Below are positions 2,049 through 59,110 of a stretch of 64,000 nucleotides of DNA, in pieces; the stretch's first letter is position 1, and each line of letters opens with the position of its first letter. The notes under the pieces were generated by a model, which saw nothing but the letters and a program-made list of their open reading frames with translations, ran no database searches and was not told where the DNA came from. Source of the stretch: Ginglymostoma cirratum (lineage: Eukaryota); assembly GCA_024137785.1 (NCBI GenBank), contig JAHRHZ010000062.1, forward strand, positions 34,222,207 through 34,286,206, written 5' to 3'. The position numbers and the translations under genes are program-made.

Positions 2049-3345
2049 GGAACAAACCGACCACTTGGCTATTCCCTAATGGTATGATATGTCCGCGATT
2101 TTGATGTTGAAGGTGGTGCAGTATGCAATTGAATTCTTCTCAATAGTAAGTGCGATTGAGAGATTAGTTTCTAACACTGAAGTATATAAGGCGAGAAGAG
2201 TACTCTGCTGCTTCACGGGGTCCATTTGTTTAATACATGCTAGTAGCATCTAAGGTTGCGTCAGTTCCAGCTTTTGTGTATTGGCCATTTTTGTTGGAAT
2301 AAATTTCCTTGTGGTTCAACAATCGGAAATTTTGCCTGCATCTCCCGTTTTTGTAGTAGTACTGAACGTCCATCTCTAGTTCCAAAGGAATTGGTTGTCG
2401 GTTCTCATTCTTGTATGGTTATTTTCAAGCGTTCCTTCCATTCAGGCTAAATCACAATTGGTTCACATGTGACAATATCATCCTCTTGTTTGAAAAGGAA
2501 CAAGGAGTCAACTGGTTGTTATCCCTAGCCTACTACTGGAGAAGGATTTGGAAAATATCATAAGGAATAACATAAGGGAGTACCTTGAGCATGAGATAAC
2601 TAGAGGATCAGCATGGTTTTTGGAAAAAAGGTCATGTCTGTCTTATTGCGTCTGTTTGGGGAAGAGGTAGCTGATGTTATTTACCAAGATTTCAAAAAGG
2701 CATTTGACACATTCCAACGTAATAGGTTTGAGCCTGAGAGATAGATAGCCGTGTTCTAAAATAGATTCCAATGGTAGCTCCAATCTTCCCAGGCTGCAGT
2801 TTTTGACAGCAGCAGATAGCATTTTGGAATGCATTGCAAAGGGTATAAATCCTAAGAAATCATGTCATAAAGCCATTTAACCCTCAAGACTGCATTGGAA
2901 GTAATTAATGCAAATTTACTGCTTGGAGTATTGAGTTATTTGAGGGTCTATTTAGTTGATCTTTCAATGTAAGGGGATAATTTGAGGATAGTTTAATACC
3001 CTGTGTCTTTCTTCAGAAGACTGAGGAAAATATGGTAGACCTTTTTTAAAAAAATGGCTTGGATGACTTTGAAGGACAAGTCGTTTTTATACATATTTGC
3101 AAATGAAATTTTAAGAGAAAAATGAAATTCAAGATTAGGCATCTTTTAAGTGATAATTATGTGTAGCCAATAATTGGAATTATTGGTCAAACACATTTTA
3201 GTATCAGGAAGATTCTAAGATGGCTCTCATCATTAAAAGAGACTCCAGTTTACCTGTATATCAAAGAGAAAATGGCATCCTCCACAGAGGAACGAGGTCA
3301 GAAGATTTGAGGAAATAAAAGTCCTTAAAATGATCTGGAGCAATT

Positions 3346-4192
3346 AGAGTCATAGAGATGTATAGCATGAAAACAAACTCTTCAGTTCAACTCATCCGTG
3401 CCAACCGGATATCCTGAATAAGCCTAGGCCCATTTGGCCCATTATCCTCCAAACTCTTCCTAATCATATACCCATCCAGATGCCTTTAAATGTTGTAATT
3501 GTGCCAGCCTCCTTCACTTCCTCTGGCAGTTCATTCCATTCACACACCACCCTCTGCATGAAAATGTTGTCCAATAGGTCCCCTTTAAATATTTTCCTTA
3601 AACCCATAATCCTTATCACCTTAAACCCATGCCCTCTAGTTTTGGACTCCCTATCCTGGGGAAAAGACCTTGACTATTCATCCTATCCATGCCCCTCATG
3701 ATTTATAACCTTCTTTCAGGTCACCCCTCAGCCCCTGATGCTCTAGGGCAAATAGCCCCAGCCTATTCTGCCTCTCCTGTAGTTCAAATCTTTCAACCCT
3801 GGCAACGTGCTCATAAATTTTTCTGAACCCATTCAGATTTAGCAACATCCTTACTATAGCAAGGAGAGCAGAACTGAATGCAGTATTCCAGAAGTGGCCT
3901 AACCAATGCCCTGTACAGCTGCAACACGACCTCTCAACTCCTATATTCAATGTGCTGACCAATAAACGCAAGCATACCAAACACCCTCTTTACTACCCTG
4001 TCTACCTGCAACTCCACTTTCAAGGAACTAGGAACCTGCACTCCCAAGGTCCCTTTGTTTAGCAACACTCCCCAGGACCTTATTATTCAGTGTACATGTC
4101 CTGCCCCGATTTGCCTTTCCAAAATGCAGCTGCGCGCATTTGTCTAGATTAAACTCCATCTGCCACTCATCAGCCTATCTGATCAAGGTCCT
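3346..4192 (-). mobile_element. CR1-type LINE 3' fragment
   Basis: Minus-strand RLGLFALEHQGLRGDL and related remnants; typical CR1 3' UTR at the left end. Confidence 0.85.
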
Positions 4193-5272
4193 GTTAGTTT
4201 TTTCAAAATTTAAATACATCAGGGAATATTTTCTTTAAACTGCTAATGCAGCTCAAAATGGATTCATCACAAAAAAGCATTTTTAATTACTTTGCTATTT
4301 AACACCATTTGAAATTTTTGGAAGTAACTTAAACGTGCAGACCCATTGCTTATCTATTTTGGTGTACAGTAGGTGGTCTCTTAGTAACTTGCATTCAAAA
4401 ACCTTTTAAGGTATATACATTGTTATCTTTGTGCCAAAAAGAACCAGTTTAATTTTTAGAGCTTTGTCAAAGTCCAGTAAAGGAATGCACTTGGCAGAAG
4501 CACGTGCTGATAGTTCACCCTAAAGATATGTCCGCTTTTATGGTTGGGATGACTTCTAGAGGGAGTTTTTTTTTTGAACTGGTGCAAAAGATCGCAGAAA
4601 CTCAGTTTGTAGTCCTAGTTGTTTATTTGTGTAGGTAATACTGATTTTTGGTAGAATCGTATTGAGGGATAAAAAGCAAAAATCTGGTGGAAAAACTCTA
4701 CCCCAAGATGCTTAGACTACTTATAGGGACACCAGTGTTTTCCTGTAAGAGACTTGCTGCATTATGTGGTGCTGTGGGGAGACCTGTGCTCTGCCCCTGG
4801 TTGACCACTTAGTGCCCGGGTTGCACAGGCCTGTCCTACGAGCACTGCCGCCATCCACCTCAAACTGTTGGCAGCGTTAGCATGGTGGTGCTGGAGGCAA
4901 CAGGTGAACAGGCATTGATCAGACTTTGAGACAGAATGATGCCATCATCAAACAACCAGAGAATGTTGCCACTTGCTTGGCTTTGAAGCCCTAGCCCAAG
5001 GATCAAGTGCAGAAATGCCTGAAGAAACTGTTGAAATGAATGAGGATGAAAGAACCATCATGATCAAACTGCACAGAACCATGTTACTCTCTCTGCACTA
5101 TTACACATAACCAATTGAGCCTGATTGATTTTGGACTTGACCTGCAGTCGACCTTGCCTAAAACTAGGTGAAATGTGTTAAAAGCTGGATCACATAAGAA
5201 GGGTCTGAATTTGTGACTGCTAGAATATTTCCTTGTATTGCATATGATTTTGTTTTGGCACAAAATTCAACT

Positions 5273-5391: not shown

Positions 5392-5580
<189 letters not shown>

Positions 5581-7637
5581 TGATGTAAGCATGTCTGAGA
5601 GTTAAAGATGTTTTCCATTAAGTGTTAGAAACTAGTGAGAAATTATAAATAATTGTTTAAATCAATTTCATTTTGAGCAACATTTTCATTAACAATGTTT
5701 ATTAACATGTCTACATGTGAATCAAAACCATTCTATATCAGTAATAAAGTTGTAATATATGGTAATGTTAGTATCTCTCAAATCCTGATTTCCTTTTGAG
5801 TAAATGACTTTTACCTAATAAATTGGTATATTTCCTTTTAAAAATTTCTCGTAGAATACTATGCTGAGCCACAGTTCGAGTTTATTCTACATTGAGCAAA
5901 AACAATCTCAAATAATTGAGATGTTAAACATTGAGTTTGTAGAGAAGTGAATCAAAGTAATGCAGATTAATCATTTTGTGGTACATGGAATATTTTAATA
6001 TCCAATAATTGGCGAATGTGTAGAAAAGTGTAAATTGCAAATTAGATTGATGTAATCTTAAAACATTTACTAGTTTACTGGACATGAGAAATACGGTAGC
6101 TAATAAGAAATCTGCTTCTTTTCAGAAAATATGCAAGTGAAAATGACCACTTCCCTGCAGATTACTGAAATGTTAATCATGAACCTGCACATAAAGGAAA
6201 TTTTAAAAAATATTCCATTTTGAATATCATAAACTGCTAGACATGTCACTGATTGGCTTTATAAACTTCAGGTCATTATGATAGAATTGTCTGGTTTAGT
6301 TCATTTACTTTTGAATCAAGATCATAAATGCTTAAGAGTTTAGAAACACCTGTTACAAATACTCGAAAGGTAGGATTCTACACTTATACAACATAGCTTT
6401 AAATTTATTGAGTGTTCAGAGCATTTGTAATAGCTGTACACTTATTTGGGTATGTGGCAAAGTGAAAACATCAACGAGGATTCAATATTTTAAGTTCCTG
6501 TCACCTGATCGCCTTTGTATGATGATGGTAATTAATCATTACAAGGATTGCAGATTGTCTGTAACTTGTTTCATACTATCAATAACTCATAGGAAATGAT
6601 GTAACTTGCAACAATTTTGAATACATCTCCTACTGAGTAAAACAATCAGCAAACCACCCTATATTCAATCCTTGAATTCTTTATAATGATGCACACAGAT
6701 CCTATTAATCCCTGTAACTGATGGAAGCAATATTGATGAAACCATTGTATTCCATTGTAGTATTTGTGTATACACTACACGTTGAATAGATTGTAACTGT
6801 TGTAATCAATTTGTCACAGAATAACTATGAAATGGTTCAAACTAAAACATTGATTGTGAGTGATTAAACTATTGTCAAGTACTAATTGGATGAAATTTGC
6901 ACTCATTATAGCAAGTCTTAAATATAAAATCTGTATTTTCTCAGTTTTTAACTTGTCACTCTTGCTGAACTTTGATAGAATATACAGTACAGAATATTCA
7001 GACCACCCAATCTATACTGGTGTTTATGCTGCACTTGAGCTGCCTCTATCTTTCCACATTTAGCTCCAATTGGAATAATACTCTATTCCATTTTCCTTCA
7101 CATGCTTACCTCACCTTGCTTAAAGATATCTGACTAAAAACACCCTATGGTAACGTATTTGGCAATCTTGCTTCTCTCCTGATAAAGACTTTTTCTTCTG
7201 AATGCCCTGTTTAATGTCGCAGTGACTTTGTCTCTGGTTTTCCTCTTCCCTAAAAAGAAACTTGTCCTCTCTGTATCTAATCTGTCAAAGCATTTCAGAA
7301 TTTTAAATACCTCTGTTAGATCACCTCACTGACTTTTAGGTTTAATGCATAGAGGCTGGGTCTATTTTCTCATGTCTGTGCACTTTTGGAATGAATCTTG
7401 TAAATTACCAGAGCTGCAAGCAGTACTCCAGTTGTAGGCTAACCCTAAGCCTGGCATAATTTTTAATTCAATCCATCTCGAAATAACCCTCCTGGGTTTG
7501 TTTTTGTTGTGAAATTATCGATCTTAATCAGATCTTGAACTAGTAGGTCCCCTACCCCGTTTAGATTCTTATTTTACGATTCATGTATAACTAATTTTAA
7601 TCAAAATGTTGATAATTATTTGATAGATACATGTTCA

Positions 7638-9267
7638 GGTTGGTTGGCTCACCGAGCTGGTTGTTCCGCAGGCGTTTCGTTAGCGTGCTTGGTAACATGC
7701 TCAGTGCAGCCTCTGATGAAGCGTCGGTGTGTTTTTCTGCCTGGCTTTTAATCTCTGGGGTCCGTTGTGATGGATTGCCTCACTTCCGGGTTTCCTCTGC
7801 AGTGGAATATATATGGGGTCGAGTTCAATGTGTTTATTAATAGCTTGCTTCGTGGAGTGCCATGCTTGCAGGAATTCTCGTGCTTGTCTCTGCCTAGCCT
7901 GTCCCAGGATCTTAGTGTTGTCCCAGTCGAAGTCGTGGTTCTCCTTGTCCATGTGGATTGAGATGAGTGAGTATTGGTCGTGTCTTTTTGTAACCAGTTA
8001 ATATTCATGTACTCTTGTTAGTTTCCTTCCTGTTCGTCCGATGTAGTGTTTAAGACCATAAGAGTGGAAGTAAGGCCATTCAGCCCATCGAGTCCACTCC
8101 GCCATTTAATCATGGCTGATGGGCATTTCAACTCCACTTACCCGCACTCTTCCCGTAGCCCTTGATTCCTTGCGAGATCAAGAATTTATCAATCTCTGCC
8201 TTGAAGACATTTAACGTCCCGGCCTCCACTGCGCTCCGTGGCAATGAATTCCACAGGCCCACCACTCTCTGGTTGAAGAAATGTCTCCTCATTTCCGTTC
8301 TAAATTGACCCCCTCTAATTTGAAGGCTGTGCCCACAGGTCCTAGTCTCCCTGCCTAATGGAAACAACTTGCCAGCGTCCACCGTTTCTATTAGATCTCC
8401 CCATAACCTTCTAAACTCTAATGAATACAATCCCAGGATCCTCAGCCGTTCATTGTATGTTAGACCTACCATTCCAGGGATCATCCGTGTGAATCTCCGC
8501 TGGACACGCTCCAGTGCCAGTATGTCCTTCCTGAGGTGTGGGACCCAAAATTGGACACAGTATTCTAAATGGGGCCTAACTATTGCTTTATAAAGTCTCA
8601 GAAGCACATCGCTGCTTTTATATTCCAACCTTCTTGAGATAAACGACAACATTACATTCGCTTTCTTAATCACAGACTCAACCTGCAAGGTAACCTTCAG
8701 AGAATCCTGGACTAGCACTCCCAGATCCCTTTGTACTTCGGCTTTATGAATTTTCTCACTGTTCAGAAAATAGTCCATGCCTGTATTCTTTTTTTCCAAA
8801 GTGCAAGACCTCGCATTTGCTCCCGTTGAATTTCATCAGCCATTTCCTGGACCACTCTCCTAAACTGTCTAAATCATTCTGCAGCCTCCCCACCTCCTCC
8901 GTACTACCTGCCTGTCCACCTAACTTCGTATCATTGGCAAACTTCACCAGAATGCCCCCAGTCCCTTCATCCAGGTCATTAATATATAAAGTGAACAGTT
9001 TCTCGCAGTCTCTGCAGGGGATATTGTAGATGACCATGGTCCTGTCCATGGCGGGGAGTGGGTCTTTAGTTCGGGTGAGCACTTGTCACAGGGTTGTCCC
9101 AGAGTTTAAAAGCCAGGCAGGAAGACACACCGATGCTTCATCAGAGGCTGCACGGAGGATGTTACCAAACCTGGTAACGAAACATCAGCGAAACAACAAA
9201 CCAGCTTGGCGAGCCAACCAACCTCAACACCCACAACCTGTGCTACAAATCTACTCCAAAACCTTAG
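7638..9267 (-). mobile_element. Penelope-like element (family B): GIY-YIG endonuclease remnant with inverted pLTRs, interrupted by a CR1
   Basis: Minus-strand VIYNIPCRDCEK / HYIGRTGRKL...FDWDNTKILGQ...AINKHIELDPIYIPL. Inverted repeats at ~7638-7750 and ~9106-9222. 13-bp TSD AGATACATGTTCA at 7625-7637 and 9268-9280. Confidence 0.88.
8052..8997 (-). mobile_element. 5'-truncated CR1-type LINE (RT C-terminus and 3' tail)
   Basis: LFTLYINDLDEG...KFANDTKLGG, RDLGVLVQDSLK, RPHLEYCVQFW, LERVQRRFTRMIPG; one frameshift near 8790. Confidence 0.93.
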
Positions 9268-18700: not shown

Positions 18701-21700
18701 GTTTCTGATTCTAAAGTAGAATGTTCTAATTTTGCATGGGGAATAAATCTGTATCGTTTTTTGCCTTCTAGTTTGCCTTGGAAAGATAAGATGTGATAGG
18801 GACTTGGAGAGGCATAGTCAGATTCCTTTATAAGATTTAGATTTGTCAGGCAATATGATATTTTACTTAAGAATATATATCGTGGTACTGACATATAGCA
18901 TACACAGTTGTTATCAATTTATCGTATAAATTAATTGCTGCTATCTAAAACTGGCATAGTGGTAGGATTTTCTACAAGCGGTTGGTGTGTAGCCTTTGTT
19001 TAGAATGAGAAAGTTTTTTTGTTGAGCACTTGCAGAACATTTCTGATTGGGAAGAGGTGTATGCTGGGACTTAATCAACATTGCCAAAGGGTGAGTGAGT
19101 TATGGTGTCCTTGAGGTAGTTTAAATATGTTTCCAGTGTGTTAACTCTCTGTTGGTAACTTTATTTTTATCCCTTAGTTATTTTGTGCAGGTAAATAACA
19201 TTGCAGTTAATAAAGCAACCTTAATGGCTGAACTGTTTTTTCTTGTTTGTAGCAAATGATGATTCTGGTCCAATGCCAAATCTCTGCAGAGTTAGCTGAT
19301 TTCAAAAAAAAAAGGAACTACACCTCTAAGATGGATTGGGGAAACTTTGCATGGCTTCTGATCCTGACCACAGCTTATTCTTCTAAGTTGCAAGCATATT
19401 AATTTCGATATTAGATGATGACTAGGCTATCTGAACTGTAATATTCCTGCATCAAACATGCAACTAGCTCATCTGAATGGCCACTGAGGCAAAGATATTA
19501 GAGTTTGGTGTTTGTGGATAGATGCAGGAGAGAAGCCAAAGGTTAGAATTAAAAAGGCATGTGGTGGTTATATGATCTGAAAACTTTTTATTTGAAGTGT
19601 GGAATTAGTGCAAAGAACTTGTGACATTTGTGACAAAAATATTTCAAAACCTACGACTGAATTATTATCCAATTATTGCTTGTGCAAGACAAAACTTAAT
19701 ATATTCCAGAAAATTAAGTGCACTGGTAAATTTTAGATGTCTTCCAATGGCTAGAAGCAAAAACAGCTTGACAAATTAATTTCCTGCGTTGATTTTTTTT
19801 AAACTAATAGAAACTATGGAACATAACAAAAAGAATAAATTTGCCTCACTTCCATTTGGTGAATGTGAGAATTGCAGGAGAAGTTTTGCATCCAAATAGC
19901 ATAATATTGTAGTGTGCCATATCTCTCTTTTTGAACCATATGTTCTGTTATTAAAATCAACTGCAGTATGTAGCAGTGAATTGTTTCTTATTTTGAAAGT
20001 TGATTAGTAAAAGGGGCTGGGTTGGGGATGGGGGCAGTGAGGTGGGGGATTGAAATTAAACCTTAGAAAATGACAAAATGTAAACAAAAACAGTACCCCT
20101 GACCAGGCTGCAATTCTTCAGGCAACATGGTAAATATTTTACATTACAAATTGGATGTTTTTCAAACAAGTTCCACAATGTCCAGAATTGGTTCACACTT
20201 GGATCATCTGCTTATGTTAGTAATGGTTTTCAAAACAACTTGAATTTAGTCAATTTGCCAAAGAAGCCATCAGGACTTGTAGATCAGCTTCTTAATAAAC
20301 TAAGAAGTAACGTTACCTAACATGATGGAGCCATTCCTCAGAAGTAAAATATGACCAGTTAATTTATTTGATTTTTTAAAAACATATCGTCTTGTAAAAT
20401 AAAACCATATTGAACTATCGTTGTGGAAGAAAAATATCAATTTGTGATTACTACTTTGCCGTAATGTCTGTGTGGAGTTGCATATGTTGTGGGGTTCTAT
20501 ACCACCTTGGCTGTACTTGCATATGTTCTTTGCTGCAGGCTTGCCCATGCGATCGTGCCTTTGCGATCGTGCCTAGAGCACTCTGGTTTCCAGGTGACAA
20601 ACACGATTCACGGTACAGTATCTGATCTCTGCTCTGACGTTGCAGCACCTTCTACAGTTGTAAACATCCTACTATATTAATTTTTGTCTGTTAAAATTGA
20701 ACCTTTAAGTTCATTGTAAAATTTGCTCAATTGTAATGTTTTTTTATTTTGGAAGTAATTTCTACTTGGGCTTCTGGCTTCCATAATGGTTTTTGAATGT
20801 GCTTGTTAACAGACAATGCAGAATGCCATTCAAATGACACAAATGCCATTCTGCTTTGAAATCTCAAAAAAATCAAATGACTATGTGGCAGAATACGTTT
20901 TCTTATTAAAGGAGAAAGTAATAGTGTGGTGCGATACAGGTCCCTAGTCTTTGTGGGTTCCCAATCTCCGAAGAAAGGGGAACTGTCAAATGAAAGTAAA
21001 TTACTTCCTTCAAGACAGAATAAAATTGGAGAGCAAATCTGCCTGGTTGCTTTCATGTGGTTCCTTTAGCTGACCCAAGAGTGGCATTGCTAGGTCCCTG
21101 GGAGCAGGGTTCTTAATTGCCCTCAGTCAGAGAATAATGCAAAGTGACAGAAAATTGGAGAGAAGTGATCTGTTGTAAGGAAAGAGAAGAATGTATGAAT
21201 TAAAGACATCTTGTTAAAAAGTTATGTGCCATCTAGGGAAAATACAAACATTGAAAAACATCATCAATTACATCTATAATAGATGAGTACTTGGGTTAAA
21301 TGTAGCTTTATTGTTTGTATATACTGGAAAAACAAAATGGTCTAAATTTCAATAGTGCTGAATGTTTGGCAAAATATTAACCATAAATGTATCAGTTAAT
21401 GTTGCATTTTAATGCCTTTCCATTTATCCAAATCCAAATTGCTTGAGGTCAAAGCAATCCATAAGTAACTGCTGCTTACAATTAGAGTAATTATATGAAT
21501 TGACTCAATGCTAATGTCTCAATATTTTGCCTCCATCATAATAGTCTTAGTTTATGTTGCAGCCTAATCCCATAACTTTGTCATGAGTGTTGAATTAGGC
21601 TTTCTGGCATTCCACTCTTGTTTGAATAAATCTCAAGTGCCTTACTTCATTAAAATACATTTACAAAAAACCTTGTTCCCATCGGTGAGTTTTCCAATTT

Positions 21701-22465
21701 CTGTTAATGGGATTTGAAAAATTCTTTCTTTTTGGAATACAAATTGTTTCCCCCATTGTTTCCAAATTGATTTTACTAGTCTGATTTTCTAAAAAGTTGT
21801 TTCTAATCCACGTATAAGAACTATATATTAGCAGTATGGTTCCCACCCCCTCTGCATGTATATTTCCTTTGTGCACTTGCCCTAAACATTGTCTATCTTT
21901 AGGTAGTTTCCCTGTCTATCTTTGGAGCATTCAGGATTTTATCTGGCTGCCTAATTTATTTTAACCTTCCAAATGCAGAAATCTAAAAATCTGTAACTTG
22001 TGGAAATGTCCTTATGTCTTTATTTTGAAAGCCATGTGTTTCTCTCTCCCTTCTCTTTCTTTCCCCACTGTCCCGTATCTGTGCATGTACCAGTGCTATT
22101 TTTTTGCCAAAGTTTCAATTTTTGATAGCGAATGCTAACCTAGAACTCTAAAAGAGTACAACATAAATAGTACAGCACTAAATTAGTAAATGTATGTTTT
22201 TCCACTAAAGGATATAGATTAAACCTAGGTGGCACTACTTTTTACAAAATTTATAGTAAATGACCTCTTAGTCATGTTTAATATGGCACCGCATTGTATT
22301 TGTGCCCCAGCATTAGAATATATTTTGGATCTCAGATCAGTTTTAGTAACAATTAGTGGTTTTTGGGGGAGGAAAAGGAAAAGAACCATTAATATAAACA
22401 GAAAGTAGGCTCATTTTACACCTTTAGTTTTTTAAAAATGAGTTGCTTTTCTGTCTTGTTGATAG

Positions 22466-22522
22466 ATGACGTGTAATAAAGGAGAGTCCAAACAGACTAA
22501 CCAGGACAGATTTGATATTCGG
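22466..22522 (+). CDS. CHKA: CHKA exon 3, alpha2-type cassette exon (MTCNKGESKQTNQDRFDIR)
   Basis: ttttctgtcttgttgatag| acceptor and CGG|GTAAGT donor; 57 nt, phase 0-0, open frame. It resembles the RSCNKEGSEQAQKENEFQ insert of mammalian CHKA isoform alpha2. Confidence 0.88.
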
Positions 22523-24903
22523 GTAAGTTTGTCTTAATTTGAAACTGTCTTCAGAAATTAATAAGTCTTTGTGCATGTTTGCAAAGGAAGCTCCTCTTTT
22601 CCCACCTGACCCCCACCCCCCAAAAAAGGTCTTGTGGTCAAACTTGTTCAGCTGCCTCTGACATTTCCCTTTCTTCCTTTGTTTTACTGGATCACATTTC
22701 CTCTTAGGCACCTCTTATCTTGGCTCTAAACTTGTATCTTCCCTATGTTCCCTCATACCCTCTGAGCTCACCTTGTTCATGAGAACCAATGCCTGCTGTC
22801 TTGAGCCTATTCTTGCTTAATAGCTGACCACCCAACTTGCCACCTTAGCATTAAATTTAGCTGATGCTAACAGTTCTCGCACTTGTCTTATCTCTTTCAA
22901 GTCTGCCATGATTACATTGTGCATCCAGTAATCAATGTTTAAGCCCTCAGACCTTGCACGTTACTAACTTATCTCCAACCTCCCTTCCCACATCCAAGTT
23001 GCCTTTCCCTGTCCGTGGTTACATCTTACCAGTCAGGTTCCAAGCCTGCCATAATGCCATATTAGCTAATATGAAAGCCATGTGATGGCTTATGTGATTA
23101 TGGCCATGGTAACCATTTCCTTAATTGCCTGGGTCAATTCTTATCTATCTAGTTGCAAGCAGTGTATTGCTTACAAGGGTTATATTTCCTTGTGTGTAGT
23201 TACCTCTGGTTTCCCCAGGAATCTATCTTTGGTCCCTGTACTTATCTGTATGCTGCTGTCATTGATATTAGACAAAATGGAGCATCTCCTGCCACTGCGT
23301 TGGTGCAGGAAGTCAGTCATGCTGATGTCATTGACGTGCACTTGGAGCAGAAAGTGAACCCCCATTCTACTGATGGGTAGGTGTGTGGTGCTGCTGATGT
23401 TGTCGTCTTCATCCTTGATCATCATCTCTTCCCCCCCCCCCCCCCCCAAACAAAAAAAGTTTGCTGTGCTTACCTGCCAGCTCCCTGCTACTGGTGCCTG
23501 AATATGTGCCCCATTTGGCCATGTAAAATTTACAGAGATGTTTGAAACTAGATTTTAAAAAATTGTAAAGGAACCCATTTGATTTGTCATTGTTAAAATC
23601 ATTTTCGTTTACTCCATGCCCTTAATCTTGGATACAGGAAGCTACTTAGAATCGTGGAATTCCGCCGGTTGGGAACAAGCCATTCAGCCCAACAGATGAC
23701 GGCTGGCATAATGTCAGTGCTGCCGCTGCCCAGACATTGTGTGCCCCCTGTGGCTGTGGTGGCGGCAGTGACTCAAACTCAACAGATTCTGTACATGATG
23801 GTGAGCTGTACCTCACCATCACATCTACATGTCGGACTGCTTATCTGATATCCAGTACTGGATGAGTAGAAATGTTTTCCTGACTAAATGTTAAGACAAC
23901 ATTTTTGTGCCTTCAGTCACCACCATGATTTTGCGACCTAGCCTCTGACTCTGTCTCTCTTCTTGGTAACAATTTTGAGGCTGAACCAGGCTCCCCTCAA
24001 CCTTGCTGTTAAGGCATGGGAACTGGGAACTATGAACTATCCAACTACCCATGCTATCACCTACTGTCATCTTTGTAGCATCACCGAAGTTAGACTCTGC
24101 CTTAGCTCAGCTTTTGCAGGAAACCTCATTCATGCCTTTATTATCTTTGTTATGTGCCCTCCTTGTAGATTCTCTTCACCCATCTATCTTCAACCTATCC
24201 CAAACTCTGCTGCTTATATGCTGACTTACTATTCACCTATCACACTTTTCCATCCTTTCAAATCCCTCCATGACCACCTCATCTATTTCTAAGCTGTGAC
24301 AGCCTTACATAAGTGTGCTCCTCATTCTGAACTCTCTTAATTGTTAACTGTTCTGCCATTGTTGGAGTGTCTTGGTCCTGAGATCTTGAACTTTGAATTC
24401 CTTCCCTTAAAACTTTCTGTTTCTCTTCTTCTCTCTCCCTTTTAAGACTTGTGTTCACACCTACCTCTTTTAAACAGTTTTATGATTAAAATATATCCTT
24501 GTGACCTGGTGTCACACTTTGTTTGATAATGCTCCAGTGAAGTGCCTTCTATGTTTTACTACAGTGAAAGTATTGACATTGGGCTTGTACCTTTGGTCAC
24601 ACAAAGGGAATATGTGAAATGAGTTGAACAGTCTTAGTTCCTAGTGACCATTGGCATATCAGCATAAATTACACTGAATTTGCACTAAATTTACAATCTC
24701 ACCTGGAGAAACCACAGGTTGCTTACTGTTGCAATTGCAAGACTGAGAGTAGGAAGTGACATTGAGATTCAAGTTAAGGCATTTTTTTTGGGATTGAGGA
24801 GAAGTAGCTTAACAAATGCTGCCTTATCTGGGATTGTGGTATAAATTTCCCCAGGAAATATCCCTCATTGAGCACAAATTTCACAGGAGAAAATACAAGT
24901 TAT

Positions 24904-35809: not shown

Positions 35810-35956
<147 letters not shown>

Positions 35957-40264: not shown

Positions 40265-40943
40265 TGATTGTAATACTGCTTGAAATGAAATTGGAATTAA
40301 TGGATGGTAGTTGTACTGTGACTCGACATGTATTGGAGTCTTCCCGTGTAGCCGTAGGAGTTTGCAGTGGTGGGGGTCTTGTGATAAGACCCAATGAAGT
40401 AGTCTGGGAGGGCAACTGCATTTTGTGAAACCTGAATTTTGTGCAACACCAACCCAGAGTTGTGCCTGAATGCAACCTGGACAGAATCGTACTCATTTTA
40501 TCCTGTAGACACTGATTCTAAGTGCTGTTTTGGAAAGGCCATACCTGGGATGTGGGACACAATACCAAATTTAGGGTGGTCCTGGATTGCGTTGTACACT
40601 GGTCTCCTGACCTAAGGCTATATCTGCCTTAGATAAAACCCAGAGCTATATAGATTGAGACCTATATTGACGTCTTGGGATTGAGATGATTTGCCTTCCA
40701 ACAACCACAAAAACAATTGTGCTGTATATGTTTCCAAACAGTTGAGAGATTTGTTCTGATTGCCACTGACCTAAGTTTTGCCAAGGCTGTTCGATGCCGC
40801 ACTGTGCCAAATGTTGCCTTGATGTCAAAGACAGCCACTGCCTTCATCTCTGGAAATCAGCTTTTTCTTTTATTCATGTTAGGACTAAGGCTTTGAGGTT
40901 AGGAGCTGAATGGTACTTGTGCAGCGCAAACTGAGCATCAGTG

Positions 40944-41930
40944 GTGTACCGCAAGGATCTGTTTTGGGGCCACTGCTGTTTGTCATTTTTATAAATGACC
41001 TGGATGAGGGTGTAGAAGGATGGGTTAGTAAATTTGCGGATGACACTAAAGTCGGAGTTGTGGATAGTGCGGAAGGATGTTGCAGGTTACAGAGGGACAA
41101 AGATAAGCTGCAGAGCTGGGCTGAGAGGTGGCAAATGGAGTTTAATGCGGAAAAGTGTGAGGTGATTCACCTTGGAAGGAGTAACAGGAATACAGAGTGC
41201 AGGGCTAATGGTAAGATTCTTGGTAGTGTGGACGAGCAGAGGGATCTCGGTGTCCATGTGCATAGATCCCTGAAAGTTGTCACCCAGGTTGATAGGGTTG
41301 TTAAGAAGGCGTACGGTGTGTTGGGTTTTATTGGTAGAGGGATTGAGTTTCGGAGCCGTGAGGTCATGTTGCAGCTGTACAAAACTCTCTGGTGCAGCTG
41401 CACTTGGAGTATTGCGTACAGTTCTGGTCACCGCATTATAGGAAGGATGTGGAAGTATTGGAAAGGGTGCAGAGGAGATTTACCAGGATGTTGCCTGGTA
41501 TGGACGGAAGGCCTTATGAGGAAAGGCTGAGGGACTTGAGGCTGTTTTCGTTAGAGACAAGAAGGTTAAGAGGTGACTTAATAAAGACATACAAGACGAT
41601 CAGCGGATTGGGTAGGGTGGACTGAGAGCCTTTTTCCTCGGATGGTGACGGCTAGCATGAGGGGACATAGCTTTAAATTGAGGGGTAACAGATGTAGGAC
41701 AGATGTCAGAGGTAGATTCTTTACTCGGAGAGTAGTAAGGGCATGGAATGCCTTGCCTGCAACAGTTGTAGACTCTCCAACTTTAAGGGCATTTTAAGTA
41801 GACGTTGGATAAACATATGGATGATAATGGAATAGTGTAGGTGAGATGGGCTTCAGATTGGTTTCACAGGTCGGCGCAACATCGAGGGCCGAAGGGCCTG
41901 TACTGTGCTGTAATATTCTATGTTCTGTGT
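40944..41930 (+). mobile_element. Relatively young 5'-truncated CR1 LINE nested in an older LINE fragment
   Basis: GVPQGSVLGPLLFVIFINDLDEG...KFADDTK RT motifs, a TTCTATG-type tail, and TCAGTG at both flanks (40938-40943 and 41931-41936). Confidence 0.93.
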
Positions 41931-57510: not shown

Positions 57511-57914
57511 AAAATAATTTAATTCAGAATTGTGCTTAAGATATATAAAATGATTTGCAGATAACTGATGGAAAAATAAATAGAATGTTAATGGAATAGT
57601 ACATAGTTAATGGTGCCAGTATTTATCATTAAGTGAATCTTGCTAATTAGAGCAAAATAATGTTTTAAACCACATAGGCTTTCTTTATTATATTACAAGA
57701 TATTTATTTTGTAAATTCTTAAAGCAATCATATGAAATTCTTACATAAATAAAAGGAAGGTTTTCAGTTCCTCTAGTTTCTCATGCAGAAAGATCTTAGG
57801 AAGAAATGTAGAATGTATCACCTAGACTCAATTTAAAGAAATATTTGTGTATTTTGGTTCTGATCCATTGACATCGACAGTGTATTCACAGGCTGCAGAT
57901 CATAGACAGGGATA

Positions 57915-59110
57915 GACTGGACTACACCTCACCCAGCGTCCTGCAAGAATGCGATCGCCTACTCCCATTTCCTCCGCCTCCGCCACATCTGCTCCCAAGA
58001 TGGAGCCTTCCATTCCCGAACATCCCAGATGTCCTCTTATTTCAAGGACCGTAACTTGCCCCCCTTCAGTGGTCAAAAATGCCCTCAACCGCATCTCTTG
58101 CATTACCCGCACTTCTGCCATCACACACCTCCCCGCAAAAAAAAACAAAGTCAGAATACCCCTTGTCCTCACATTTCACCCCACCAACCTCCATATTCAA
58201 CATATCATTCTCTGCCACTTCCGCCACCTACAATCCGACCCCACAACCAAAGGTATATTTCCCTCCCTATCCCCATCTGCCTTTCGTAGGGACCGCTCTC
58301 TCTGTGGCTCCCTTGTTCACTCCACACTCCCCATTGACTCCACTGCCCTGGGCACCTTTCCCTGCAACCGCAGGAAGTGATACACCTGCCCCTACACCTC
58401 CCCCCTCACCTCCATCCAAGGCCCAAAACAAACCTTCCACATTAGGCAGGGTTCACCTGCATATCTGTCAGCTTGGTCTATTGTATCTGCTGTTCTCAAT
58501 GTGGCCTCCTCTACATCGGTGAGACCAAGTGTAAACTTGGAGACCGTTTTGTAGAGCATCTGCACTTTGTACGTGACAAACAACACCTTCCAGTTGCCAG
58601 CCATTTCAAATCCCCCTCCCACTCCCTTGATGACATGTCCATCCTTGGCCTCCTCAGAGTCACAACGACAACACCCACACACTGAAGGAGCAGCACCTCA
58701 TATTCTGCCTCGGGAGCCTAAGCCCAATGGCCTAAACATGGAATTCACCAGTTTTAAAATCTCCCCACCCCTGGCCTCATCCCATGTCCAACCCTCCCTC
58801 TCATCCTCACCTCCTTGACCTGACATAACCTGTCTATCTTCTCTCCCACCTATCTGCTCCTCCCACCTCACTGACCAATCCCCACCACTCCCTACCTGCA
58901 CTCACCTATCACCATCCCGTCTACCTTCCCCAGGCCCACCCCTCCGCTCTATTTATTTCCCAACTCCCTTTCACCTCCCTATTTTGGAACATGGGTCCTG
59001 ACCTGAAATGTTAACGTTATTGCTCCTCTGATGCTGCCTGGCCTGCTGTGTTTTTCCAGCTCAATACTGTGTTGTCTCTGACTCCAGCATCTGCAGTTCT
59101 TGCTCTCTCC
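57915..59110 (+). mobile_element. Penelope-like element (family A-related): RT thumb, Cys-rich linker, GIY-YIG remnant and pLTR
   Basis: Frameshifted FLRLRHICS...RIPLVLTFHP...AFRRDRSL...FPCNRRK...VYCICCSQCGLLYIGETKCKLGDRFVEH...VASHF. The 3' pLTR resembles 55396-55542. Confidence 0.88.

Follow-up and report, generated by a model that had tools for sequence, protein, structure and literature searches.

The window, that is, the whole 64,000-nt stretch of DNA from the shark Ginglymostoma cirratum analyzed here, carries a CpG-rich, repeat-bearing element deep within an intron of a choline kinase gene, which raises the question of whether the element is a regulated exon, an internal promoter, or a relic. 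The first-pass annotation had favored a constrained poison exon as one of its readings. This proposal was borne out by homology to the mouse Chka alpha3 exon, although the annotation had missed that the mouse exon was already known; the shark copy is its counterpart. Taken together, the evidence makes it highly probable that 20539–20612 is a poison exon that has been kept since the first jawed vertebrates and would lower the level of active choline kinase alpha.

The peptides encoded by the exons in the window are 97–100% identical to shark choline kinase alpha, indicating that the host gene is shark CHKA, read from the + strand. The window covers 34222207–34286206 of its contig in a 4.36-Gb genome and begins ~750 nt downstream of exon 1. 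Exon 2 ends in phase 0 and is the upstream partner of the poison exon, and the shark isoforms of 415 and 396 aa differ by the presence or absence of exon 3. The element is located within intron 2 (16.9 kb), 15 kb past exon 2 and 1.9 kb ahead of exon 3 (Table 1).

Table 1. Positions of the CHKA exons and of the features of the intron 2 element in the window.
Feature	Position	Strand	Basis
CHKA exon 2 (109 nt)	5436..5544	+	tblastn with shark CHKA P0006; borders
11-nt repeat (two copies, palindromic core), predicted hairpin 5' of the acceptor	20478..20527	+	Folding
Poison-exon acceptor	20520..20538	+	AG position; tail register
Poison exon (likely length 74 nt), corresponding to the 60-nt NMD exon of mouse Chka	20539..20612	+	Tail matches; deduced donor
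14-nt tandem duplication inside the exon	20548..20574	+	TRF; frame comparison
Internal donor-like site (GT 20594–95), exonic in mouse and fish isoforms	20583..20599	+	Tail read-through
Intron from the poison exon to exon 3 (1853 nt)	20613..22465	+	
CHKA exon 3 (57 nt, optional)	22466..22522	+	tblastn, isoforms
CHKA exon 4	35810..35923	+	

Several other observations concern the surrounding gene. The Met at the exon 2/3 boundary opens exon 3 in the shark (skipping of the exon removes 19 residues, 415 to 396 aa) and closes exon 2 in amniotes, since amniote isoforms retain it when exon 3 is skipped; the boundary at this Met is shifted by 3 nt between sharks and amniotes. Four mammalian CHKA records (P0028, P0073, P0100, and P0170) carry an extra short insert following exon 2 (..KLWNGK), which comes from another optional piece of intron 2. 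Decayed reverse-transcriptase-like retroposon fragments, which we take to be CR1-like, are present at 8128–9085 (-), 40910–41530 (+), and 57906–58380 (+), and the first is bordered by an inverted repeat (7632–7759/9098–9229, 84%).

Short CHK proteins were gathered with exon 1–2 queries (n = 114), and the residues following exon 2 were compared. A cluster of 15 included the "choline kinase alpha 3" records of Mus musculus (P0174, AAR89357.1, 164 aa), rat (P0175), and Mus spicilegus (P0176), in which the tail after exon 2 is ACPCDRAWSTLVSR. The first seven residues of the mouse tail matched at 20539 (7/7), a match that was unique among the six frames of the 16.9-kb intron, and the last 11 residues matched in the frame that follows a 14-nt duplication in the shark (10/11 and the stop). 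When this duplication was set aside, the first 45 letters of the exon fit the mouse tail except for one codon. The kakapo record stops after the first seven residues, where the corresponding shark frame also stops. Dallia pectoralis and one further record end in AFQKERALSTLVSR, and related tails in another frame were also found (two teleost-type records, Pungitius, Acnodon).

The back-translation score of each tail at the acceptor 20538/9 was compared with those at 150 of the 933 AG sites in intron 2, and the resulting z values were 17 for mouse, 15 for kakapo, and 9.1, 8.6, 6.6, and 6.2 for the teleost records, compared to 0.7 and -1.1 for two control tails. Scores of at least 21.5 were reached by 13 of the 114 short CHK proteins (seven rodent-type, which are not independent, one bird, and five teleost-type). 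The two teleost records at 15.4 and 14.5, which were counted as related, are weak, because an ordinary exon-4 tail (P0155) reaches 18.4; several of the bird and fish records are gene models. No cartilaginous-fish protein with an alpha3-type tail was present among the 114, and the ray-like tails P0012, P0188, and P0190 did not match at the element (scores of 0–1.5). In these ray-like transcripts, exon 2 is spliced to different stop-bearing pieces, which are possibly lineage-specific cryptic exons.

The reading frame varies between the tails, and their stops come after 7, 14, or 23 residues, indicating that no peptide is conserved. Frames and stops differ among the shark, rodent, bird, and teleost records, so that conservation is seen at the nucleotide rather than the peptide level, which suggests that selection acts on the RNA. 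In addition, the shark and mouse exons occupy the same position between CHKA exons 2 and 3, as judged from the tblastn exon map and the mouse coordinates, and the homology, compared through the protein tail, begins at the acceptor. These results suggest that 20539–20612 likely corresponds in the shark to the alpha3 poison exon of mouse Chka, and that the exon has likely been conserved since the first jawed vertebrates. The last common ancestor of shark, teleosts, bird, and rodents lived ~420–450 million years ago.

For the mouse exon, the accessible text of PMC8492312 describes alpha3 as an inactive form produced when an exon containing a premature stop is included, and reports that alpha3 is increased, and full-length CHKA protein decreased, in the fasted Lpin1-null mouse liver. 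The consulted tables of PMC13078869 contain an NMD_in cassette of Chka at mm10 chr19:3871002–3871062 (60 nt, between exons 2 and 3), which is also present in GENCODE M25, in long reads at E14.5, and in two earlier NMD lists, and whose inclusion in the adult brain differs from that in other tissues (column sig.AdultBrain). From its position and length, rather than from its DNA, we infer that this cassette is the alpha3 exon. The same tables list a second mouse Chka NMD exon of 123 nt between exons 3 and 4 (mm10 chr19:3881997–3882120) and a version of exon 3 lengthened upstream as far as 3875378; in the human tables that were looked at, CHKA has a single NMD event, close to the 3' end. The accessible part of a preprint (10.64898/2026.07.09.736446) includes Chka among isoform switches, with the exon not named.

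The 14-nt duplication, which changes the reading frame, is missing in the mouse, rat, kakapo, and teleost tails. Since 74 - 14 = 60, the mouse length, while 55 - 14 = 41, the shark exon likely spans 20539–20612. Its acceptor was found where the annotation had placed it: the AG ends at 20538, the tails of mouse, rat, and kakapo begin in register with 20539, the next AG upstream is absent for 61 nt, and branch-point-like sites are present only at -74, -88, and -91. A GT follows both 20593 and 20612, and by a crude, uncalibrated score the U1 match is 18 for the former and 10 for the latter; by the same crude score, no GT site from 20545 to 22460 exceeds the 20593 site, which shares the top value.

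Splicing of the 74-nt exon to exon 3 creates a TGA at 22467–69, which precedes the exon 3/4 joint by 53 nt and is followed by more exons, and which therefore falls under the rule applied here for nonsense-mediated decay (a stop >50 nt upstream of a later exon junction). The form that keeps the downstream intron meets a stop at 20623, and an early stop was found in every splice path tested. The proposed mechanism is as follows. Splicing of exon 2 to 20539 would lead to an early stop and no active choline kinase alpha. The weak donor at 20612, together with the stronger site at 20593, which is predicted to be hidden in a hairpin, would make the second splicing step slow, with two possible outcomes. 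In the first, the exon would be fully included, and the message, stopping at 22467, would undergo nonsense-mediated decay; in the second, splicing would stall with the 1.9-kb intron still in place (stop at 20623), and this form would be held or degraded in the manner of decoy exons. Both outcomes would reduce the enzyme, and how much phosphatidylcholine synthesis can pass through its first step would depend on the share of transcripts entering them. As the trigger, a splicing-factor or metabolic state is likely, and a choline-derived signal is possible.

The downstream part of this mechanism was compared with shark RNA. Four sequencing runs (X3, X4, X8, and X14), three of them RNA-type, were placed on 20620–23000. 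The three RNA-type runs carry spliced RNA, as shown by exon–exon joints: exon 3 was joined to exon 4 in all three and exon 2 to exon 3 in two. Of the 14 loose ends shown at exon 3 in this stretch, 12 lead to exon 2 and exon 4; three loose ends without an occurrence in the window were dropped. No junction from exon 2 to the element, or from the element to exon 3, was listed over 20620–23000, a stretch that starts past the exon. The parts without cover (X3 and X14 over most of 20620–22460, and all four runs at 20620–20699) were excluded as evidence.

RNA contigs covered the intron ahead of exon 3 in two of the three RNA-type runs, from 20749 in X8 and from ~20860 in X4, and one contig (X8 record 15, 22045–22523) continued into exon 4. 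The contig depths in this intron and in intron 3 were 85–129 versus 2–9 in X8, and 2,078–5,097 versus 37 in X4. Because contigs are graph paths rather than molecules, and their depths cannot rank the parts of a gene, these values are only a hint of retention, consistent with the 1853-nt intron likely being often retained. One X8 contig ends in a run of A at 22967, within intron 3, which reflects either an intronic poly(A) site or an artefact.

The same cover raises the possibility that the element acts mainly as a splicing decoy that holds the 1.9-kb intron in nuclear transcripts, with inclusion and decay being a minor leak. This overlaps with the poison-exon reading and differs from it in which outcome dominates. 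The contigs that span the intron hint at such a role, the weak donor and the lack of a near branch point are consistent with it, and conserved cryptic cassettes are described in the accessible part of PMC6097662 as promoting the retention of introns >1 kb. However, the mouse exon is a spliced 60-nt cassette that responds to a block of NMD (PMC13078869, consulted tables) and was measured by RT-PCR (PMC8492312, accessible text), the cover in the shark is confined to the downstream part (20620–23000), and CHKA is absent from the four supplementary files of PMC6097662 that were covered. We therefore regard a predominant decoy role as a tenable but not the expected explanation. CHKA was also absent from the three supplements of PMC7726792 that were covered.

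For the end of the poison exon, the annotation had preferred a 55-nt form with the donor CAG|GTGACA at 20593 and had named 20612 as its second choice. Use of the shorter form in this shark would be in line with the better U1 match (18) and would also give premature stops, as the annotation had stated: the stop falls at 22474 after joining to exon 3, and where exons 4 and 5 meet after joining to exon 4. The tails of the related isoforms nevertheless pass 20593. The mouse tail terminates with Arg-stop at the place of this donor, and neither exon 3 (RSC...) nor exon 4 (GAE...) can give a stop after Arg, indicating by codon inference that the GT at 20594 is read through; the stops of the Dallia and rat tails likewise require read-through. 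Two teleost tails end in KHDVL-stop at the same offset as the TGA at 22467 of the 74-nt shark form, and the mouse exon has 60 nt rather than 41. These results move the likely donor to 20612, the annotation's second choice, and make it unlikely that the 55-nt form is used. A mutually exclusive swap with exon 2, which was considered on the grounds that a 55-nt exon would have the same phases, was rejected: the required frame exists only by virtue of the duplication, and exon 2 is present in every related record.

A control of exon use by RNA structure had been suggested on the basis of three pairings, TGCTGCA with TGCAGCA (hiding the acceptor), AGAGCA with TGCTCT, and ATCGTG with CACGAT. All three helices are complementary, and the last two do cross each other. 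The element as a whole folded no better than its shuffles on either strand (z of -0.15 and +0.08; -0.6 to -1.25 in 7/7 windows), and the best window, selected post hoc, reached a z of -1.69, with 26 of 500 shuffles as good. The mean pairing probability (P) of the acceptor-hiding helix was 0.70, 0.63, 0.28, and 0.15 in windows of 150, 200, 300, and 400 nt, respectively. For the 11-nt repeat, which is present at 20478 and 20517 as had been noticed earlier, the mean P of pairing between the copies was 0.56, 0.83, and 0.88 in windows of 200, 300, and 400 nt. A small hairpin at the internal donor (20583–86 with 20590–93) was predicted in 57/57 windows (P = 0.94–0.97).

The two units of the duplication are predicted to pair with each other (mean P = 0.91–0.96). 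The helix 20566–71/20602–07 had a P of 0.01–0.03 in the native sequence, 0.94–0.95 with the second unit removed, and 0.17–0.91 with the first unit removed; in native chains ending at 20620–20630 it reached 0.68–0.87 from two of the three start points, and in these short chains it also pairs the 20612 donor. The crossing helices therefore suggest two folds 2–3 kcal/mol apart, one pairing the 20612 donor and the other freeing it. These predictions raise the possibility that the shark element was weakened by its duplication. The teleost tails hint at a change in the 5' arm without a change in its partner (D to E codon, P0197/P0191), which is weak and protein-based evidence. Control of exon use by structure is thus modeled here as an unproven possibility.

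The duplication also bears on whether the element is a decayed relic, broken in this shark, or a repeat fragment. The direct repeat, described as 13-nt copies at 20548 and 20562, was confirmed, and TRF identified it as the only tandem repeat between 5000 and 36000 (period 14). Loss of function would be consistent with the shifted frame, with the predicted rewiring of the fold, and with the shark product not having been seen. The 74-nt form, however, retains a stop, and, the duplication and one codon aside, the letters are still compatible with the mouse tail as described above. A match to a transposon family had been named as a refuting outcome; a search of the 4.36-Gb genome, with very common words skipped, returned one match, the element itself. 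In Rfam, the six matches over 19500–21700 at E up to 10 were all far under gathering and none was on the element, and introns 1–2 of the CHKB paralogue (G000:C46) did not match it, the best hit (E = 0.022, 25 nt) being outside the element.

A comparison with a second organism points in the same direction. The segment 20400–20720 was present in 20 of 24 listed runs, runs of this shark among them. For organism A (12 runs, 4 studies), the word share was 1.00 in 11 runs and 0.77 in one; for organism B (8 runs, 3 studies), 0.83 of the 30 sampled words were shared. In intron 3, organism B differed by 12 letters and one gap in 202 nt (one 225-nt contig; single copy). None of 20,000 simulations at this intron-3 divergence reached a share of 0.83, which fits ~0.5%, and the element is thus ~tenfold less diverged than intron 3 with respect to organism B. 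Since the share of 0.83 over 20400–20720 fits ~0.5% divergence, the conserved block seems, judging against the one contig, wider than the exon. Decay of the element is accordingly very unlikely.

The annotation's other proposal, an internal promoter or alternative first exon giving an N-truncated kinase from the exon 3 ATG, drew on the seven CpGs in ~90 bp, all of which were found (20550 to 20639). Such windows of 90 nt with seven CpGs make up ~0.03% of all and occur at just one other place, 7633–7756, within the inverted repeat mentioned above; two of the seven CpGs are due to the duplicated 14-nt unit. A CpG island is defined by at least 200 nt with GC >0.5 and an observed/expected ratio >0.6. 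No island was found at the element, with a GC of 0.38 and a ratio of 0.56 over 500 nt, and with all three windows of 200 nt below the island GC (0.45–0.50; ratio 0.64–0.70). Although the local CpG cluster favors a promoter, and the RNA contigs, which reach exon 3 from 20749 or earlier and link it to exon 4, would equally fit a long first exon, the best 500 nt at the true exon 1, upstream of the window, contain 20 CpGs, every related record is spliced from exon 2, the sole ATG of the exon stops after nine codons, and the ATG of exon 3 encodes a normal Met inside the protein, so that this proposal is unsupported and most improbable.

With regard to coding potential, the hydrophobic frame pointed out earlier does extend over 43 codons without a stop and contains no ATG in frame. 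The frame of the exon ATG (20547–20593) starts like amniote exon 3 and, without the duplication, meets 20593 in phase with a similar final residue pair. This likeness is probably due to chance, as Arg is absent from shark and axolotl exon 3 and the exon ATG is absent from the teleost tails; an old exon duplication would be a less probable origin.

The poison-exon reading gives a different meaning to mouse alpha3, which has so far been treated as an inactive side product. The persistence of the exon at the RNA level in shark, teleosts, bird, and rodents speaks for a control dedicated to the enzyme that starts phosphatidylcholine synthesis, and the exon provides a 60–74-nt target for probing splicing feedback in this pathway. 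The shark duplication offers a natural experiment on the importance of the individual helices. CHKA is relevant in cancer (PMC9100777, accessible part) and is reportedly tied to a recessive neurodevelopmental disorder; because CHKA matters in both, it is of interest that blocking of the exon could raise the enzyme. A literature search, with subscription journals mostly outside it, found no paper on the conservation, retention, or feedback of the exon. As far as this search reaches, it is new that the exon is conserved across jawed vertebrates, that it contains a donor-like site, that it carries a duplication in the shark, and that there is a hint of retention.

By analogy with other genes, the element could be a splicing switch that has read choline or phosphatidylcholine status since the first jawed vertebrates, with the two folds setting inclusion and retention. 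We consider this rather doubtful; if true, the Kennedy pathway would have a product feedback, as OGT and MAT2A have for their own products. That the element RNA itself binds a small molecule, the extreme version of this idea, is hardly credible.

Compared with known systems, the closest is mouse Chka alpha3 itself (AAR89357.1, UniProt Q5J2U5). The two exons share the gene, the intron, the register of the acceptor, and the early stop, are near-identical in sequence as seen through the protein tail, and are of equal length once one 14-nt unit is subtracted. The shark exon differs in being 14 nt longer, in having its stop in exon 3 (22467), whereas the mouse stop lies inside the exon, in its distance to exon 3 (1.85 kb versus 4.7 kb in mouse), and in the signs of retention of the downstream intron.

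The poison exon of SAT1 is polyamine-responsive. Like the exon of SAT1 and those of the SR-protein genes, the CHKA exon is a stop-bearing cassette that is conserved at the RNA level and would tune its host gene by decay. In contrast to the SR poison exons, its host is a lipid-pathway kinase and not an RNA-binding protein, and, unlike the ultraconserved SR exons, its teleost copies carry indels and substitutions and are not strictly ultraconserved.

As seen in the accessible parts of the respective papers, the conserved silencer in OGT intron 4 (PMC5588854) resembles the element in being intronic, in a metabolic enzyme gene, and linked to non-productive splicing or retention, and the detained intron of MAT2A (PMC5959247) is likewise a case of intron retention in a metabolic enzyme gene. 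OGT retention follows O-GlcNAc levels, and a corresponding feedback on CHKA is an analogy that implies no likeness of sequence. Finally, the exon 4e decoy of SF3B1 (PMC6097662, accessible part) resembles the CHKA exon in that both are conserved non-coding cassettes of a large intron, are spliced inefficiently, and have retained sequence next to them. In CHKA, cover is seen only on the downstream side, and the decoy role is a candidate one.
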